Shown in pieces: positions 1-13,143 of a stretch of 64,000 nt of DNA. The stretch comes from Pseudomonadota bacterium (lineage in GTDB: Bacteria; Chloroflexota; UBA5177; JAJPKF01): NCBI GenBank assembly GCA_021323865.1, contig JAJPKF010000024.1, positions 9,207 to 73,206 on the forward strand. The letters are read 5' to 3'. Both the position numbers and the translations under genes were made by a program. The notes under the pieces were generated by a model that saw nothing but the letters and a program-made list of their open reading frames with translations, was not told the DNA's origin and did no database searches. Position 1 is the first letter of the stretch, and every line of letters starts with the position of its first letter.

Positions 1-284
1 GCTGAAATTTTGTGTGGGAGGGAGCCTGCGGCCCCTTCCTCCCCGCCCGACTTTCTTCAAAGCCTAAAGAAAGACTGCCACAAGATAGCAGGAACAGGCG
101 GTCGACGCCAAGCCAACGCGGACGCCTATGGGGCTCGTCTTCTGGTCGACACTCCCCAACTCGGTCAGCGCCTCGAACCGGTGACGACGAGCCATGCGCC
201 GGTGCAGGGCCACGACCCGAATTGGCGACTACTCGTTCTCCCGCACCCGGGAATCCCGCGGCAGCGAATCCGGCCTCGAGGCAG

Positions 285-4998: not shown

Positions 4999-5949
4999 CT
5001 ACCCCTTCACGGCTCCGCGAGACAGCCCGGCGACCAGGAATCGCTGCATGGAGAGGAAGACGATCAACAGCGGTAGCGAGCCGAGAACGGCCGCGGCCGC
5101 GAAGTCGGTCCAGTTCTGGGTGAAGGCGCTGTTGATGAAGCCGTGCAGGCCCAGCGCCATGGTGTAGTTGCTGGTGTTCTGCAGCAGGAAGCTGGCGACC
5201 AGGTATTCGCTGTACAGGCCGAACCACGTGAAGAGAAAGACCACCGCCATCATCGGCCGGGTCAGGGGCAGGATCACCCGGAGATAGGCCTGCAGCTTGG
5301 ACGCGCCGTCGACATACGCCGCCTCCTCGAGATCCCGGGGCAGCGAGTCGATGTAGCCCTTGAACAGCCAGGCCACGAAGGGCAGACCGCCGCCGATCAT
5401 GACCAGCGTGTAGCCCTGCAGCGTGTCGTATAGGCCGATCTTGTTGAGCAGGAACTGGTAGGCGATGAACGACATCTGGGCAGGGAACATCTGGATGAGC
5501 AAGAGGCCCATGAGTCCGTACTTGCGGCCCTTGAAGCGGAACCGGCTGAAGGCGTAGGCCATGGTGGCCACCAGCAGCACGGTGATGACGCCGACAGAGG
5601 TGCAGACGATCACCGAGTTTCTGATCCAGGTGACGAACCCCACGTTGAGGTTGGGGTCGAACAGCGCTCGGTAGTGGTCGAGCGTGAACCCGGTGGGAAA
5701 GATGGTGTTGGTGAAGTAGGTCCCCGGCTGGAAGGAGGTGCCCACCACCCAGACGGCCGGCACCAAGATCAGAAACATGACGATCCAGACGATGATGCGG
5801 CTGCTCCAGAGGAACACGCGCTCGCCGGTTCGCATCCGTCTCTTCGCGCGCGAGCGGCCCCTGATCCAGCCCAGACCGCGTCCGGCCTGGGGCGTGCCCA
5901 CGGCGGCCGCAGGGAGGGCTTGGGCGACGCCCTGGCTGGTGGGTTCCAT
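4999..5949 (-). CDS. carbohydrate ABC transporter permease (MalG-like, binding-protein-dependent inner membrane component)
   Basis: Six TM segments and the EAA-like loop (YIDSLPRDLEEAAYVDGASKLQAYLRVILPLTRP) of sugar ABC permeases. Its start overlaps the stop of the upstream permease (TGATG coupling). Confidence 0.85.
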   Translation of the reverse strand: MEPTSQGVAQALPAAAVGTPQAGRGLGWIRGRSRAKRRMRTGERVFLWSSRIIVWIVMFLILVPAVWVVGTSFQPGTYFTNTIFPTGFTLDHYRALFDPNLNVGFVTWIRNSVIVCTSVGVITVLLVATMAYAFSRFRFKGRKYGLMGLLLIQMFPAQMSFIAYQFLLNKIGLYDTLQGYTLVMIGGGLPFVAWLFKGYIDSLPRDLEEAAYVDGASKLQAYLRVILPLTRPMMAVVFLFTWFGLYSEYLVASFLLQNTSNYTMALGLHGFINSAFTQNWTDFAAAAVLGSLPLLIVFLSMQRFLVAGLSRGAVKG

Positions 5950-6923
5950 CAGTCAACCTCCTGAAATGCGCCGCTGAGCCGCATGTTGATGGAGCTGAGG
6001 GTTCCGATGATGAAGAAGATCAGGATCCCGTAGGCACAGGCCAGCCCCCACTCGTGCAGTGTGTAGGCGACGCTGTAGGTATAGGTTGGAAGGATATCGG
6101 TTGCGCCCGCGGTGACCGACGTCACGGGCCCGCCACCCGTCAGCAGATAGACAACGCCGAAGTTGTTGAGGTTGTAGGCGAAGGTGGCGATGACCAAGGG
6201 CAGGGAGGCGGTCCGGAGAAGCGGGAACGTCACGCGGAAGAACTTCTGGAACCCGTTGGCGCCGTCGATCTCGGCCGCCTCGTGAACGTCGGGCGGGATG
6301 CTCTGTAAGGCGCCCAAACAGGCGGTCATCATAAACGGGTAGCCCAGCCAGAAGTTGACCAGGAGCACGGAGAAACGGGCCCAGAACGGGTCGCCTAAAA
6401 AGGGGATGCTGGGCACGTGGAAGACGTTCACCAGAATGGTGTTGATCATGCCGCCACCGGTGAAGTTCTGGAGAATTCCGCCCCAGGCGAGGATGGCGAT
6501 GGTGCCCGGGAGGGCCCACGGCACGATGAGGATCGTGCGGTAGAGATTGCGCTCCCACATGTTTTCGTTGTTCAAGAGATAGGCGAGAACCAGTCCGCCG
6601 CCAAAGTTAAGTGCGGTGGTCACGGCAGCGAAGATGACGGTCCACTCGAAGACGCCCAGGAACGCCTGAGGCTGAAAGACCGTGAAGATCTTCACGAAGT
6701 TGTCGAGACCGATGAAGCTGAAGTTGAGGTCGTGGGCCTCACTGTAGTTGGTCATCGACATATAGATGGTGAAGAGGATGGGGAAGAAGCTGGCCACCAC
6801 CATGAAGGCCAGCGACGGAGCGATGTACCCGTACGGATACAGACCGTCGAGGAACCGGCGGCGGCGCCGCACGGGTTTGACCACCGGGGCGTCCGCGGGC
6901 GCGGGCGGGGATATGGCGGCCAT
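5949..6923 (-). CDS. carbohydrate ABC transporter permease (MalF-like)
   Basis: Polytopic membrane protein with the conserved permease loop (DVHEAAEIDGANGFQKFFRVTFPLL). The strong SD AAGGAGGAAG lies upstream of the ATG at 6923. Confidence 0.85.
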   Translation of the reverse strand: MAAISPPAPADAPVVKPVRRRRRFLDGLYPYGYIAPSLAFMVVASFFPILFTIYMSMTNYSEAHDLNFSFIGLDNFVKIFTVFQPQAFLGVFEWTVIFAAVTTALNFGGGLVLAYLLNNENMWERNLYRTILIVPWALPGTIAILAWGGILQNFTGGGMINTILVNVFHVPSIPFLGDPFWARFSVLLVNFWLGYPFMMTACLGALQSIPPDVHEAAEIDGANGFQKFFRVTFPLLRTASLPLVIATFAYNLNNFGVVYLLTGGGPVTSVTAGATDILPTYTYSVAYTLHEWGLACAYGILIFFIIGTLSSINMRLSGAFQEVD

Positions 6924-7003: not shown

Positions 7004-8260
7004 CTACGCTCCGGCCTTGCGGGCCTGAGCGGCGGCGGCCTTGAGGTTCTTGGCAGCCGAGCCGTTGTTCTGAAGGGTCAGGGCGATTGCCTTCTGGGCA
7101 GGTGACCAGATGGGCGACATGAAGGGAACGTTCGGAAGCGGCACACTGTGCTTGAAGCCGTTGCTGTACTGCTTCAGCTCCGCATTCTTCGACACCTTCT
7201 TGAGGGCGGCCTTGGTGGCCGGGATGCGGGCGCCGGCCTTGAAGAGGGCCAGCTCACAGTGCAGGCTCAGGTACGAGGCCAGGCTCTGCGCCGCGGAAAC
7301 GTGCTTGGAGAACTTGTTCACGACCATCGTCTGGACGCCGAGGAACGGCTGGCCGAACTTGTGCTGCGCGTCGCGCGGCAGTGGGGCGAAGCCGTACTTG
7401 AGGTGCGCCGCGCGCCAGGTCGGATCCGACCAGGGGCCGTCGAGCACGATGGCGGCGTTGCCGGACGCCAGCTGGGCGCCGTAACCGCCGCTGTTGCTGT
7501 TGCTGCTCAGCCAGTCGCTGACCGGGGTCCCCGACTCGTCGATGACCTTCTTCAGGTAGTTCAGTCCTCGGATCGAGCCACGATTGTCGAGGAGGACCTT
7601 CTTGGTGTAGCCGCTGCTGCTGTGCTTCAGCGCGCCGCCGCCATAGGCGGTGAAGAAGTCGTAGTCATAGTAGAAGTTGTCCCACTGCCACACCATGCCG
7701 AGCTTGCCGGTCTTTGCGTGGAACTTGTGGGCCCACTTGGCGACCTTGTCCCAGGTGTAGGCCTTGCCCTTGAACAGGGAGGCCGGGGCCAGCTTCTTGT
7801 TGTAGTAGAGGCCCACCATCTCGAGCGCCCACGGGTAGCAGAAGGTGTGTCCCTTGATGGTGCAGCCGGAGACGGCCGAGGCGACGTACTTGCTCTTCTG
7901 GAGCTTGGACGGCGCGACGAGCTTGGCGCCATAGTCGGCGCCGGCCTGGTCGTCGGGCATCATGACGATGTCCGCGGCCTTGTGGGGGTCGGCGGTGAAG
8001 GCGTTGTTGGAGCCGTTGGCGGGCTGGGCCGGCTCGGTAACGGTGTTACCGGTCTTCTTGGCCCACTGCTGGGCGATCTTGTTCATCGCCACCCGCTCCG
8101 GGGTGTTGACGGGCGTCTGGTTGAAGAAGTCCCAGATGACGAGGTGCACACCCTTCTTGGCCGGGTGCTGGGCCGAGGCGACGCTCAGCGTGCCGAAGAC
8201 CATGGCCAAGGCCACAAGGGTCCCGACCAGGACGTTCAGCGACTTGTAGTTACGCGGCAT
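7004..8260 (-). CDS. extracellular solute-binding protein (family 1) of sugar/maltodextrin ABC transporter
   Basis: N-terminal signal MPRNYKSLNVLVGTLVALAMVFGTLSVASAQ. Size and composition are typical of MalE-like sugar-binding proteins. It sits in an operon with two sugar permeases. Confidence 0.85.
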   Translation of the reverse strand: MPRNYKSLNVLVGTLVALAMVFGTLSVASAQHPAKKGVHLVIWDFFNQTPVNTPERVAMNKIAQQWAKKTGNTVTEPAQPANGSNNAFTADPHKAADIVMMPDDQAGADYGAKLVAPSKLQKSKYVASAVSGCTIKGHTFCYPWALEMVGLYYNKKLAPASLFKGKAYTWDKVAKWAHKFHAKTGKLGMVWQWDNFYYDYDFFTAYGGGALKHSSSGYTKKVLLDNRGSIRGLNYLKKVIDESGTPVSDWLSSNSNSGGYGAQLASGNAAIVLDGPWSDPTWRAAHLKYGFAPLPRDAQHKFGQPFLGVQTMVVNKFSKHVSAAQSLASYLSLHCELALFKAGARIPATKAALKKVSKNAELKQYSNGFKHSVPLPNVPFMSPIWSPAQKAIALTLQNNGSAAKNLKAAAAQARKAGA

Positions 8261-9956
8261 GAATGGATTCCTCCAAGTGAATATCTAGCGATTGGATTTC
8301 GACCGGCTGCTTCGCTTCTCTACCCGATTGCTCCTCCTTTCTGCTCGTGCTTTCTACTCGATGTTCGTTCCCCTGCGCAAATACGGCCGCCCGGCTGGGA
8401 AGGACCTCGACGCGGCCGTTGTTGATGGTGCCGGAATCGTCGGCGCGGACCCAGATGTCGTTCCTGGCGAGGACGTGCGCGGCGAACTCATACTTGCCCG
8501 GAGGCAAGGAGCCGAGCGTCACGCCGTAGACATTGTGACCGTCGCTGGAGCTGATGAGCCGCATGGGGCTGTTCTTGGGACTGGGCCATACGGAGCCGAA
8601 GAGGGCCACGCGATCCCAGTGCAGCAGGGCCTTCACGCCGTCGTACCCGGCGGCTTGGCCATCCTCCAGCTCCACCTCCACGGTCACGGAAACGGGATCG
8701 CCGCTGCCCACACGGAGGAAGCCTGGCTTGAGATTCCCCGCCCAGGCCACCCTGGCATCGCTGGGCTTGAGGATCATGCCCAGCTCGGCCAGCTCGGGCC
8801 ATACCGGCGTCTCTTCGAAGGCCGGCTGTGCCAGGCCGGCGTCGTCGACGTACATGGCGTGCTCGGCGACGCCGAAGAATTGCTCGAGCACCAGCGTCGC
8901 CGCTCCGATACAGGAGGCCCGCGGGCCCAGCTTTCCGGGCACCGGCTGTGGCTGCGGCATTCCGAACAGCGCCGGCCGCCGGGTCAGCGCTTCCTTCAGA
9001 TGGGCAAGGGTGGTCTCGCCGCACTCGAAGAGGCGGCCGCCCAGGACGATCATGTCCGGGCGCAGCTGGCGGCAGACGTTGTTGATGCCGACCGCCAGAT
9101 AAGCCATGGCCTCGTCGAGGGCATTCAGAGCAATGGGATCGCCACCGCGCACGGCCTCCATAACAACGTCGAAGCTCACCGACTCCCAATCGCCACCGGC
9201 GCGGTCGGCGATGCCGGTGGCGCCTCCCAGCTTGGAAGCGGCGACCGTGCGGCGCACGATGGAGCCCACGGAGGCCACGGCCTCCAGACAGCCATAGTTG
9301 CCGCACAGACATGGCGGCCCATCGACGTCGATGACCGTGTGGCCCACCTCGCCGGCCGCGCCGTCCACCCCCCGGTACAGGGCGCCGTCGATCACCATGC
9401 CCGAGCCGATGCCGTGATCGACGTAGAGATAGACGAGCGAGCCCGTGCCGTGCAGCCGGCTGCCCGCCCCATATCGAAACTCCGCCAGGGCAGCGAGATT
9501 GGAATCGTTCTCGAGTGTGACCGGCAAGCCCAGGCGCCGCTCGAGCGTCTCGGCCAGCGGAATCCGGCTCCAGCCGGGAAACCCGGGAATGCCGATGACC
9601 GTTCGCCCGCCCGTAACCGGGCCGGGACAGCCCACCCCGACGCCCAGGACCTTCGCCGTGTCGATGCGAGCCAGCCGGTTGACCTGATCGGCGGCCTCGA
9701 CCACCGTCGAGGAGACGGAATCCGGGTCCGCCCCGCCCTGCAGGGGCAGGCTGGTCTCCGACCGGATGTTGCCCACCAGGTCCGTCAGGACCGCCTCGAC
9801 CTGCGTGGGCCGGATGTTCACGCCAATGGCAAAGTGAGCGTCGGGCTCCAGCTCCACCAATGTCGGCGGACGACCGCCGGTCGAGGGGCCCAGACCGATT
9901 TCTCGAATGAGCCCTCGACGGGAGAGCGAGCTGAGCACGTTGAGCACCGAGGACAA
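8250..9956 (-). CDS. ROK-family (NagC/Mlc-like) regulator fused to a C-terminal glycogen/starch-binding (AMPK-beta/CBM48-like) domain; N-terminal wHTH extends upstream of the called TTG start
   Basis: The ROK core carries the zinc motif GHTVIDVDGPPCLCGNYGCLE. The C-terminal ~100 aa (VSVTVEVELEDG...LPPGKYEFAAHVLARNDIWVRADDSGTINNGRVEVL) matches the carbohydrate-binding module (CBM) pattern of AMPK-beta/CBM48. The in-frame sequence upstream of 9956 (to the stop at ~10158) encodes SARLARYNRAVVLDLIRRFGPVSKSELADRSGLALSSVLNVLSS, which is the ROK winged helix. The real start is therefore upstream, but no ATG/GTG/TTG is present there. Confidence 0.8.
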   Translation of the reverse strand: MSSVLNVLSSLSRRGLIREIGLGPSTGGRPPTLVELEPDAHFAIGVNIRPTQVEAVLTDLVGNIRSETSLPLQGGADPDSVSSTVVEAADQVNRLARIDTAKVLGVGVGCPGPVTGGRTVIGIPGFPGWSRIPLAETLERRLGLPVTLENDSNLAALAEFRYGAGSRLHGTGSLVYLYVDHGIGSGMVIDGALYRGVDGAAGEVGHTVIDVDGPPCLCGNYGCLEAVASVGSIVRRTVAASKLGGATGIADRAGGDWESVSFDVVMEAVRGGDPIALNALDEAMAYLAVGINNVCRQLRPDMIVLGGRLFECGETTLAHLKEALTRRPALFGMPQPQPVPGKLGPRASCIGAATLVLEQFFGVAEHAMYVDDAGLAQPAFEETPVWPELAELGMILKPSDARVAWAGNLKPGFLRVGSGDPVSVTVEVELEDGQAAGYDGVKALLHWDRVALFGSVWPSPKNSPMRLISSSDGHNVYGVTLGSLPPGKYEFAAHVLARNDIWVRADDSGTINNGRVEVLPSRAAVFAQGNEHRVESTSRKEEQSGREAKQPVEIQSLDIHLEESIHAA

Positions 9957-10176
9957 CGCGAGCCCGCTGCGATCCGCCAGCTCCGACTTGGAGACCGGTC
10001 CAAATCGGCGGATAAGATCGAGAACGACGGCCCGGTTGTAGCGAGCAAGGCGCGCCGATTGCTGCTGAGGTATCTCCCTGCTCCCCAGTGAACTTTCTTC
10101 AACTGATGGTAGAAGTTCACCATCAGGATAGGGCCAAACGCGCGAGAAGTCAACCCCTCACCCAGATGAATATTCA

Positions 10177-10635
10177 ATGAATGAAGGAAGTACGAACTTC
10201 CGTTCCACCGAGGAGCGGCGATACGCGACCCTCAGCCGCGTGGAGCCGGATGTTGTGGAGCTGGCGGTGGAAAGCGGTATTCAGCGTACCTGGACCCGGC
10301 GGGCGCCCGAGGAATCGCTCGATCAGCTCTTTCAACGCTGTCTGACGTGGTTGAGCCACGAGGGCTGGCGGCCGATCAGCCATCACAATGCGGGCGCCGC
10401 CGGCGTGGTGCTGGCGCGCGTTCCCTACCCCGCCGGCGCCCGGCTCTCGACCTTCGGCGTCCTCCGGTTCGTCGACGCCGATTGCCTGGTGCTTTCGGTC
10501 AGCGGCTCAACCATGCGTCGTTGGGACGGTGACACCCGTGAACGGCTGCTGGATCGTGCCATTCAAGAGCTGCACCGAGAGGGTTGGATGGTGCACCGAC
10601 GATACAGCCGTGGCGCCACCGTCGTCAGGGCCTGA
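10177..10635 (+). CDS. hypothetical protein
   Basis: 152-aa ORF with high GC3 that starts in an AT-rich intergenic region. No recognisable domain. It is terminated by a strong hairpin at 10651-10688. Confidence 0.4.
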   Translation: MNEGSTNFRSTEERRYATLSRVEPDVVELAVESGIQRTWTRRAPEESLDQLFQRCLTWLSHEGWRPISHHNAGAAGVVLARVPYPAGARLSTFGVLRFVDADCLVLSVSGSTMRRWDGDTRERLLDRAIQELHREGWMVHRRYSRGATVVRA

Positions 10636-10650
10636 TTCTGACGAATGGCA

Positions 10651-10688
10651 ACAAAAAGGGCGAGCCGGAGTGGCTCGCCCTTCTCTGT
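10651..10688. terminator. bidirectional intrinsic terminator (11-bp perfect stem aagggcgagcc/ggctcgccctt, loop ggagt) flanked by A-run (plus strand) and T-rich tract
   Basis: The hairpin is A-tract (caacaaaaa) + AAGGGCGAGCC-ggagt-GGCTCGCCCTT + ctctgtg. On the minus strand it is followed by UUUUUGUUG, so it terminates the sigma-factor gene. It also ends the plus-strand ORF 10177-10635. Confidence 0.7.
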
Positions 10689-10696
10689 GCGTTGGA

Positions 10697-11779: not shown

Positions 11780-12243
11780 GTTTCACCCCTCTCCTGTAAC
11801 GTTCGAAAGGCCACAGAGGGGCTGCCCTCTATGGCCTGCGGATACGGCACAAGAACACGAAATGTGATCTGAATTGTTCCCTACACCGATATCTTAACAC
11901 AACATAACGTTGTTGGCAAGGGGAAACAATTATACACATGCGAGCTGCCGGCAACGGATTTGTTTGCCGGGGGGCCAACGGCACGAATGCCGACTCGCTG
12001 CCTGGACATCGTTTCCCTCGCGGACGGCGAGCCTCTGATAAGGCTTTATGGGCCAGCCTCAAACACTGTGTCATGGAACCATTGGATGCACGTGTGACGC
12101 CTGCAAAATGTGGGCCTGCGAACATCGGGGCCGCCTGAGACCGGTGTACATTGTGATGCGCATCACACTGAAGGAGGCGAGCGGCGCACCCACCATCCGC
12201 CGTCTCGGAGACGGCCGACCGCCTCCAGACCAACCTCGAGCTG

Positions 12244-13143
12244 GTGATACTCGGGAAGAGCGAGATCATCCGCCACCTCCTGGTCGCTTTGTTCTGCGGC
12301 GGTCACGTGCTCTTCGAGGACGTTCCGGGAACCGGCAAGACCACCCTCGCCCGAGCCCTTGCCCGCTCCATCGACTGTGACTTCAAGCGGGTGCAGTTCG
12401 CGCCCGACCTGCTCCCCTCAGATGTCACGGGCACCAACTTCTTCAACATGAAGTCGAGTGAGTTCGAGTTCCGACCCGGTCCGGTCCTGACCAATGTGCT
12501 GCTGGCCGATGAGATCAACCGGGCCACGCCCCGTACGCAGGCAAGCCTCCTGGAGGCCATGGAGGAGCGGCAGGTGACGGTCGACGGCGTGAGCCGGCCG
12601 CTTCCGCGACCATTCATGGTGCTGGCGACGGAGAACCCCATCGAGCTGGAGGGAACGTTTCCACTCCCCGAAGCGCAGGTGGATCGTTTCTTCATGCAGC
12701 TGTCCCTCGGCTATCCCGACCTCGCCTCGGAGAGCGAGATGCTGCTGTCGCAGGAGCGGGTGCACCCACTGGACTCTCTGCAGCCGGTCATCACGGGAAC
12801 TGAGGTGGCCGATCTCGAGCAGTCGGTTCGCGCGGTCACGGTTCACGACGACATTCGCGACTACATCCTGCAGCTCGTGCGGAGCACGCGTGAGCGCACG
12901 GAGCTGTCACTGGGCGCCAGCCCCCGCGGCTCGCTGGCGCTCTACCGAGCCACCCAGGCCCTGGCCGCCATGTCTGGTCGCGACTATGTCCTTCCCGACG
13001 ACGTCAAAGCCATGGCCGTGGAGGTGCTGGCCCACCGTCTGATGCCCTCCGCGGAGGGACGGCTGAAGCGTATCGAGCCGGCTGCCGTCCTGCACCAGAT
13101 CCTGTCCGATGTCGAGGCGCCGGTCGAGCCGCTCGCCTCCTAA
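12244..13143 (+). CDS. MoxR-family AAA+ ATPase (5' end apparently frameshifted)
   Basis: Walker A is GGHVLFEDVPGTGKTT and Walker B is LLADEINRA, in a MoxR-type arrangement. The conserved N-terminal helix (...TADRLQTNLELVILGK) is encoded in-frame upstream of GTG 12244 without a start codon. ATG 12156 in the +2 frame could supply the N-terminus if a 1-nt indel exists near 12205-12212. Confidence 0.85.
   Translation: MILGKSEIIRHLLVALFCGGHVLFEDVPGTGKTTLARALARSIDCDFKRVQFAPDLLPSDVTGTNFFNMKSSEFEFRPGPVLTNVLLADEINRATPRTQASLLEAMEERQVTVDGVSRPLPRPFMVLATENPIELEGTFPLPEAQVDRFFMQLSLGYPDLASESEMLLSQERVHPLDSLQPVITGTEVADLEQSVRAVTVHDDIRDYILQLVRSTRERTELSLGASPRGSLALYRATQALAAMSGRDYVLPDDVKAMAVEVLAHRLMPSAEGRLKRIEPAAVLHQILSDVEAPVEPLAS

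Follow-up and report, generated by a model that had tools for sequence, protein, structure and literature searches.

The ROK-family regulator encoded on the minus strand of the analyzed window (the whole stretch of 64,000 nucleotides), which comes from an uncultured soil bacterium of the Chloroflexota represented by metagenomes only, probably starts at an AUA codon, positions 10073-10071, by way of the Shine-Dalgarno-like sequence GGGGAG. Read from this codon the regulator is intact; an AUH codon (AUA or AUC) at the start appears to be conserved within its clade, and such a weak start is likely to keep the regulator scarce. The gene and its start region comprise the following features.

8250-10073, minus strand: proposed full coding sequence of the ROK-family regulator (607 aa, from the ATA start to a TAA stop at 8252-8250), based on translation, Pfam, NagC/Mlc profiles and orthologue N-termini
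10158-10160, minus strand: TGA stop in frame, bounding the open frame on its 5′ side
10086-10088, minus strand: in-frame CTG, an alternative near-cognate codon, overlapping the Shine-Dalgarno-like site and absent from orthologues
10081-10086, minus strand: Shine-Dalgarno-like GGGGAG, with a 7-nt spacer to ATA
10074-10078, minus strand: second GGGAG, directly before ATA
10071-10073, minus strand: ATA (AUA), proposed initiation codon, homologous to ATG/ATC at orthologue start positions
9957-10070, minus strand: 38 codons (PQQQSARLARYNRAVVLDLIRRFGPVSKSELADRSGLA) for the N-terminal HTH helices, which together with TTG 9956 make the 39 codons scored for dN/dS
9954-9956, minus strand: TTG, the first canonical in-frame start, within the recognition helix (...GLALSS|VLNVLSSLSRRGLIRE)
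9945-9947, minus strand: GTG, the start chosen by the JGI gene caller
8400-8750, minus strand: C-terminal beta-sandwich, of which about 120 aa are conserved (LLHWDR...PKNSPM...LPPGKYEF...NGR.EVL), with no Pfam match

Positions 8250-10160 of the minus strand form a single open frame, whose product combines an N-terminal winged helix-turn-helix (HTH), a ROK domain and the C-terminal beta-sandwich. The ROK domain is recognized with a score of 166.6 bits against a cut-off of 22.9 (PF00480, E = 1.2e-48). Of the winged-helix families, HTH_IclR scores 23.4 bits against a cut-off of 22, while MarR and HTH_24 fall slightly under theirs. Scores for the NagC and Mlc equivalog models (NCBIfam NF047937 and NF049930) lie below their cut-offs (144.6 vs 650 bits and 131.5 vs 530 bits, respectively), and by these profile comparisons the protein is a ROK regulator that is neither NagC nor Mlc.

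The TGA at 10160-10158 is followed by 67 sense codons (10157-9957), one more than the 66 counted in the initial annotation of this DNA, and none of them is ATG, GTG or TTG. That annotation had placed the first canonical in-frame start, TTG 9956, inside the recognition helix. The reading of the frame bears this out, as do the Pfam winged-helix matches (HTH_IclR, MarR and HTH_24), which occupy residues 42-86 of the stop-to-stop translation and thus extend to both sides of TTG 9956 (residue 68). The JGI gene call from GTG 9947 is a truncated protein of 565 aa (P0001), and a Shine-Dalgarno site is absent before both TTG 9956 and GTG 9947. A run of 39 coding codons devoid of a canonical start is by itself unremarkable. 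Positions 10-13 of the NagC and Mlc profiles align to residues 37-39 of the stop-to-stop translation, so the N-terminus is to be expected at about residues 25-30, and ATA is residue 29. CTG and ATA had also been named as the only possible initiators. Both are present, and ATA (10073-10071) does stand 7 nt after GGGGAG (10086-10081), as had been reported; two further near-cognates, ATC 10013-10011 and CTG 9980-9978, are nevertheless in frame, each within the HTH.

A protein search yielded about 50 orthologues of 47-69% identity, which share with the window protein an unusual C-terminal extension. Some are named by their sources as Chloroflexota or Dehalococcoidia MAG proteins, and the orthologue DNA is found on Chloroflexota metagenome contigs. 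In 26 of the 39 orthologue proteins read, the N-terminus has the form M/L/V-x(0-5)-QQ[QSP].. ahead of a conserved ..ARLARYN (for example MGQQQSARVARYN, MAIGQQQSARLARYN and MQQQPARLARYN; the M-x-I-G-Q-Q-Q type is also present). Translated from ATA, the window protein reads I-P-QQQSARLARYN and aligns to these starts. The remaining 13 proteins were called truncated, inside or past the QQ..ARLARYN stretch, and further orthologues also have truncated calls; such entries begin, for example, with VLDL.., LAERSG.., MELNP.. or MNVRP... The initial annotation had allowed that homologues might truly start at the equivalent of position 9956; none of the orthologues compared does so genuinely, the truncated entries being gene-caller artefacts.

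Upstream of the proposed start lie a promoter-like site and an inverted repeat, the central motif of which occurs once more near the beginning of the window.

10125-10153, minus strand: sigma-70-type promoter-like site TTGACT-17-TATCCT (one site found vs 0.1 expected)
10088-10120, minus strand: conserved inverted repeat GTGAACTT-N17-AAGTTCAC, just past the -10 box, a putative operator or 5′-terminal stem
50-60, minus strand: second exact TTGAAGAAAGT, after a promoter-like site TTGGCT...TATCTT and upstream of GGGGAGGAAGGGG (0.2 expected by chance)

The TTGAC and TAnnnT elements of the promoter are invariant in eight orthologous loci, with a spacing of TTGAC-N17/18-TAnnnT across L164, L165, L168, L169, L171, L173, L174 and the window. 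The inverted repeat contains TTGAAGAAAGT (10092-10102) and has the invariant core ACTTC...GAAGT. Conservation of promoter and repeat is at the nucleotide level, among orthologues with coding sequences saturated at synonymous sites. Because the core of the repeat is invariant, covariation is uninformative as to whether it serves as an operator or a 5′ stem-loop. RNA structure or a riboswitch in the leader found no support: the fold z-score was an unremarkable -1.8, and Rfam returned nothing beyond a chance-level sRNA match (E = 0.11). This match, to the Salmonella sRNA STnc320, lies on the plus strand at 10638-10692, reaches 22.8 bits where the gathering score is 50, and is almost certainly due to chance. 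Positions 40-115 of the minus strand mirror the leader of the ROK gene, and the gene preceded by the second TTGAAGAAAGT runs off the start of the window. Occurrence of this second copy after a promoter-like site suggests a shared operator, possibly with autoregulation, and the second site is probably part of the same regulon.

The codon at the start position could be compared in eight orthologous loci, with the window as one of them. Locus L167, cut by a contig end, was left out of this count, as were P0003, P0015, P0018, P0024, P0029 and the NCBI entries P0016, P0032 and P0033. The eight loci carry the following codons.

Window: ATA; no canonical start upstream
L165 (P0009): ATC; no canonical start, in-frame TGA 6 codons upstream
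L166/L168 (P0010/P0125): ATC; no canonical start, in-frame TGA 6 codons upstream
L169/L170 (P0021): ATC, preceded by GGAGGAG with a 4-nt spacer; the sole canonical codon upstream is a TTG within the -10 box
L171/L172 (P0035): ATC, preceded by GGAGGGG with a 7-nt spacer; the sole canonical codon upstream is a TTG ahead of the -10 box
L164 (P0007): ATA (ATG GCA ATA); ATG two codons upstream, truncated by the gene caller anyway
L173 (P0002, the closest relative): ATG (ATG ACG ATG); canonical start upstream, with ATG at the codon itself too
L174 (P0017): no Ile codon; in-frame TTG/GTG further upstream

A canonical start is missing in five of the eight loci, the window included, and all five have ATH at one alignment column, which across the loci holds ATA, ATC (four times), ATG (once) and ATG-x-ATA (once). 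Between the -10 box and the HTH no canonical start was found in L165, L166/L168, L169/L170 or L171/L172. The window is the sole locus with ATA and with Pro in place of Gly as codon 2. Shine-Dalgarno-like sequences are spaced as GGGGAG-7-ATA in the window, GGAGGAG-4-ATC in L169 and GGAGGGG-7-ATC in L171; L165 and L168 have weak purine-rich sites only. In MAG GCA_035949135.1 (L168) the ATC is already given by NCBI, through automatic annotation, as the start of HEV3309566.1, a product of 588 aa beginning MGQQQS....

The upstream in-frame TTG of L169 and L171 was considered as a start and rejected, since it sits in or before the -10 box and was passed over by the gene callers. In these two loci the regulator may be reached by read-through from an upstream malK-like gene. 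In a rough neighbour-joining tree the ATC loci fall into two subclades, split by members with an upstream ATG or TTG, and the window stands on its own branch. On this tree the AUH state is therefore either long-standing or of repeated origin.

The codons beyond this position have evolved as coding sequence. Over the 39 codons past the ATH/ATG codon, pairwise comparison of the window with six orthologous loci gave dN of 0.012-0.149 and dS of about 0.8-2.4, saturated in some pairs, and hence a dN/dS of about 0.01-0.13, with 14-26 codons differing synonymously and 1-7 non-synonymously. By this measure the N-terminal HTH codons are under strong purifying selection in all lineages, the window among them. 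The region 5′ of the ATH codon is conserved at the nucleotide level only. The distance from TTGAAGAAAGT to ATH is 11, 11, 12, 15 or 18 nt among the loci, so the upstream frame is not preserved, and in four loci an in-frame TGA lies inside the TTGAAGAAAGT motif. Selection downstream, combined with frame variation and in-frame stops upstream, argues that coding starts at the ATH codon.

As a control, 160 distant ROK regulator loci (27-40% identity) were collected from metagenome and genome contigs; scanning of these contigs with generic ROK peptide patterns recovered distant ROK genes only and no orthologues. Among the 142 assessable control loci, a canonical start precedes the first HTH helix in 141, and the lone exception has masked bases. 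Absence of a canonical start in five of eight orthologous loci, as opposed to at most one of 142 control loci, corresponds to a Fisher p of 6e-7, and on this comparison the predicted AUH start is a trait specific to this clade of regulators.

Non-canonical initiation, at CTG or AUA, was among the readings proposed in the initial annotation, and it is the one favoured here, in its AUA form: orthologues start at that codon, four lineages have ATC there, and the HTH codons are under selection. Initiation at the CTG (10088-10086), five codons upstream of ATA, would give a protein with the N-terminus MGSREIPQQQ.... In initiation efficiency this codon ranks with AUA (10.1101/063800), and it is found 4 nt after the purine-rich GAAGAAAG. 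It has, however, no counterpart in the orthologues, in which the region is non-coding and varies in frame; the good Shine-Dalgarno sequence GGGGAG lies downstream of the CTG and overlaps it; and the homologous start position is that of ATA. We therefore regard CTG as an improbable start.

The alternative of a recently disabled regulator, also put forward initially, implies that an ATG was changed to ATA in the window lineage, so that no regulator is produced, or translation from TTG 9956 or GTG 9947 yields just a fragment lacking the HTH, and the operon is derepressed. The closest orthologue (P0002 in L173) indeed has ATG at the codon in question, AUA is a weak initiator, and dN/dS is blind to a very recent loss. 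Yet the other 606 codons are intact and a good Shine-Dalgarno sequence has been kept 7 nt upstream of ATA. ATC has moreover been kept in four other lineages together with strong purifying selection on the HTH, which indicates that AUH is compatible with function. As for the fragment, its putative starts have no Shine-Dalgarno sequence, it would have its recognition helix cut, and the codons upstream of it are under selection. Loss of the regulator thus seems quite unlikely. With AUA as the preferred start, the ATA of the window could be either a recent mutation of ATG that weakened the start or an old trait.

An error of sequencing or assembly, suggested at the outset as another explanation, or a minority variant, would mean that the true base at 10071 is G and the codon ATG. 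The codon is one base away from ATG and the sequence is a metagenome consensus. The window is, however, matched by a JGI soil metagenome contig (3300005532, Ga0070739_10000146), by ENA ERZ27279673 (a MEGAHIT assembly) and by Logan SRR5579884, and the upstream region, including ATA, is identical in all three, although their read sets may overlap, which limits their independence. Two of the three have a single SNP relative to the window, at another position. ATA is unlikely to be an assembler artefact. As a non-canonical codon also recurs, in the form of ATC, in unrelated metagenomes, we consider a miscalled ATG very improbable.

A canonical start in another frame (ATG 10123, GTG 10120 or the TTG of TTGAAGAAAGT at 10102), joined to the ROK frame by programmed frameshifting or by a hidden assembly indel, is scarcely credible: the three codons lie just past the -10 box in conserved DNA, but the conserved TTG is in the +1, -1 or 0 frame relative to ROK depending on the orthologue, a slippery site is absent, ATG 10123 and GTG 10120 are located at or before the predicted transcription start, and this DNA is conserved as nucleotide sequence, synonymous changes being absent. 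The same variation of frame offsets between orthologues led us to reject a conserved frameshift or uORF starting from an upstream TTG, ATG or GTG.

The regulator gene is followed by genes of a sugar transporter.

7004-8260, minus strand: solute-binding protein gene, whose ATG (8260) overlaps the ROK stop by 11 nt, with GGAGGA inside the 3′ end of the ROK gene
5949-6923 and 4999-5949, minus strand: two permease genes, downstream of the solute-binding protein gene

The ROK and solute-binding protein genes are tightly packed as an operon. A GH13 alpha-amylase-family gene is located nearby, and the orthologous loci bring in malK-like, GH77, phosphorylase and glgB genes. This gene content fits a maltodextrin/starch uptake operon of which the regulator is the first cistron. 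A Shine-Dalgarno motif precedes 15 of the 31 long genes of the window (background 14%). The genes for the binding protein and permeases have GGAGGA, AAGGAGGA or AGGAGG followed by ATG, and the regulator has GGGGAG followed by ATA.

On the other side of the ROK gene, between it and a sigma-70 gene, there is a divergent ORF of 152 aa (10177-10635, plus strand) with no Pfam match; gene calls in L001-L003, from the window's own population, also place it there. In L166/L168 this position is taken by an ORF of 145 aa that lies on the strand of the regulator and is thus not divergent.

We propose that GGGGAG, 7 nt upstream, would direct initiator tRNA to AUA 10073-10071, giving a product with the predicted N-terminus (f)Met-PQQQSARLARYN.... 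Within this clade of Chloroflexota regulators of maltodextrin/starch operons, AUA or AUC at the start would be a conserved feature. The weak AUA start most likely holds the repressor low relative to the co-transcribed transporter, since the operon opens with the regulator gene, and the transporter genes are equipped with strong Shine-Dalgarno sequences and ATG starts. Conservation of the promoter and the inverted repeat suggests that transcription of the operon is controlled as well, perhaps by autoregulation. We infer from sequence that AUA actually initiates, that low expression is its purpose and that the repeat functions as an operator.

As to the strength of such starts, AUA, AUC, AUU and CUG initiate in E. 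coli, a different host from the Chloroflexota considered here, at 1-2% of the level of AUG in a reporter study (10.1101/063800). An older E. coli study, as quoted in PMC5499595, placed such codons at 5-7.5% of AUG, again for a host other than Chloroflexota. Classical regulated weak initiation is known from infC, which uses AUU or AUC for autoregulation (10.1101/063800; PMC5499595). Only infC and pcnB are confirmed E. coli genes with a conserved start other than AUG, GUG or UUG (10.1101/063800).

A GC3-based scan of the window for long coding regions ahead of predicted starts, in itself crude, flagged a gene for a MoxR-like ATPase (12172-13143, plus strand). The gene matches its orthologues (SAVSETADRLQTNLEL) for about 15-20 codons ahead of GTG 12244, its first canonical start. 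The stretch ahead of this start (12169-12246) contains no ATG, GTG, TTG or in-frame ATH, and its only candidates are ACG 12211 and CTG 12241. A strong GAAGGAGG is present at 12170-12177, ATG 12155 is in another frame, and several MoxR orthologues are also called truncated. This gene may be a second case of a non-canonical start, or may contain a frameshift.

The AUH start of the ROK gene in several diverged lineages, taken together with MoxR coding sequence upstream of the first canonical start, raises the wider idea that start-codon selection is relaxed or deliberately exploited throughout this Chloroflexota group, with AUH, and perhaps other near-cognates, tuning low-abundance regulators against co-transcribed genes, possibly in response to IF3 activity. 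We regard such a lineage-wide phenomenon as doubtful.

For genome annotation the consequences are more immediate. Gene calls for twelve of the proteins (P0001, P0007, P0009, P0010, P0021, P0024, P0026, P0028, P0035, P0121, P0122 and P0127) are truncated by 17-100 residues, with loss of the HTH, and truncated orthologues are labelled "glucokinase" or "sugar kinase" by their sources. Gene callers thus delete the DNA-binding domain, and inference of regulons and metabolism from such metagenomes is biased as a result. Confirmed bacterial genes with a conserved start other than AUG, GUG or UUG are very few. The ROK family described here would add a phylogenetically replicated natural case in a transcription regulator, that is, an AUH start outside translation factors, with one orthologue already annotated in this way by NCBI. 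Alternation of AUA, AUC and AUG at one codon, on a transcript shared with strongly translated transporters, would also make the family well suited to asking whether weak start codons set the level of a regulator relative to the structural genes.

Among known ROK regulators, NagC, Mlc and XylR share with the window protein the N-terminal winged HTH and a sugar-kinase-like ROK domain that bears the CxCGxxGC zinc motif. The fuller motif, CxCGxxGC(L/W)E, appears in the window protein as CLCGNYGCLE, and its C255, C257, G258 and C262 show no variation across 40 orthologues. The gene likewise adjoins sugar transporter genes that are presumably under its control. It differs from the classical members in its non-canonical start and in an additional C-terminal beta-sandwich of about 170 aa, which they do not have. 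The AlphaFold (AF2) model of this domain has a core pLDDT above 90. Its best PDB matches are to CBM21 of PP1 glycogen-targeting subunits, which are weak (E = 4e-5 to 7e-4, TM 0.4-0.5, 13-17% identity) and stand among many generic beta-sandwiches. On this structural model the domain may be an alpha-glucan-sensing module fused to the ROK regulator.

With respect to its start, the gene is likely to belong with infC (IF3) and pcnB of E. coli among the known genes that begin at a non-canonical AUH codon. In those genes orthologues retain the near-cognate AUH behind a Shine-Dalgarno sequence, and such a codon is believed to restrict or regulate expression (10.1101/063800; PMC5499595). Unlike these translation and RNA-processing factors, the protein described here is predicted to be a sugar-responsive transcription regulator, for which autoregulation through IF3 has no obvious logic. 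AUA or AUC stands here in place of AUU, and some of its orthologues have reverted to ATG or kept it. The nearest annotated parallel is HEV3309566.1 of the Chloroflexota MAG GCA_035949135.1, which clusters at 90% identity with P0010, a protein 66% identical to that of the window. It shares the operon context of the window and is annotated as starting at the homologous codon, which is ATC there and ATA in the window.
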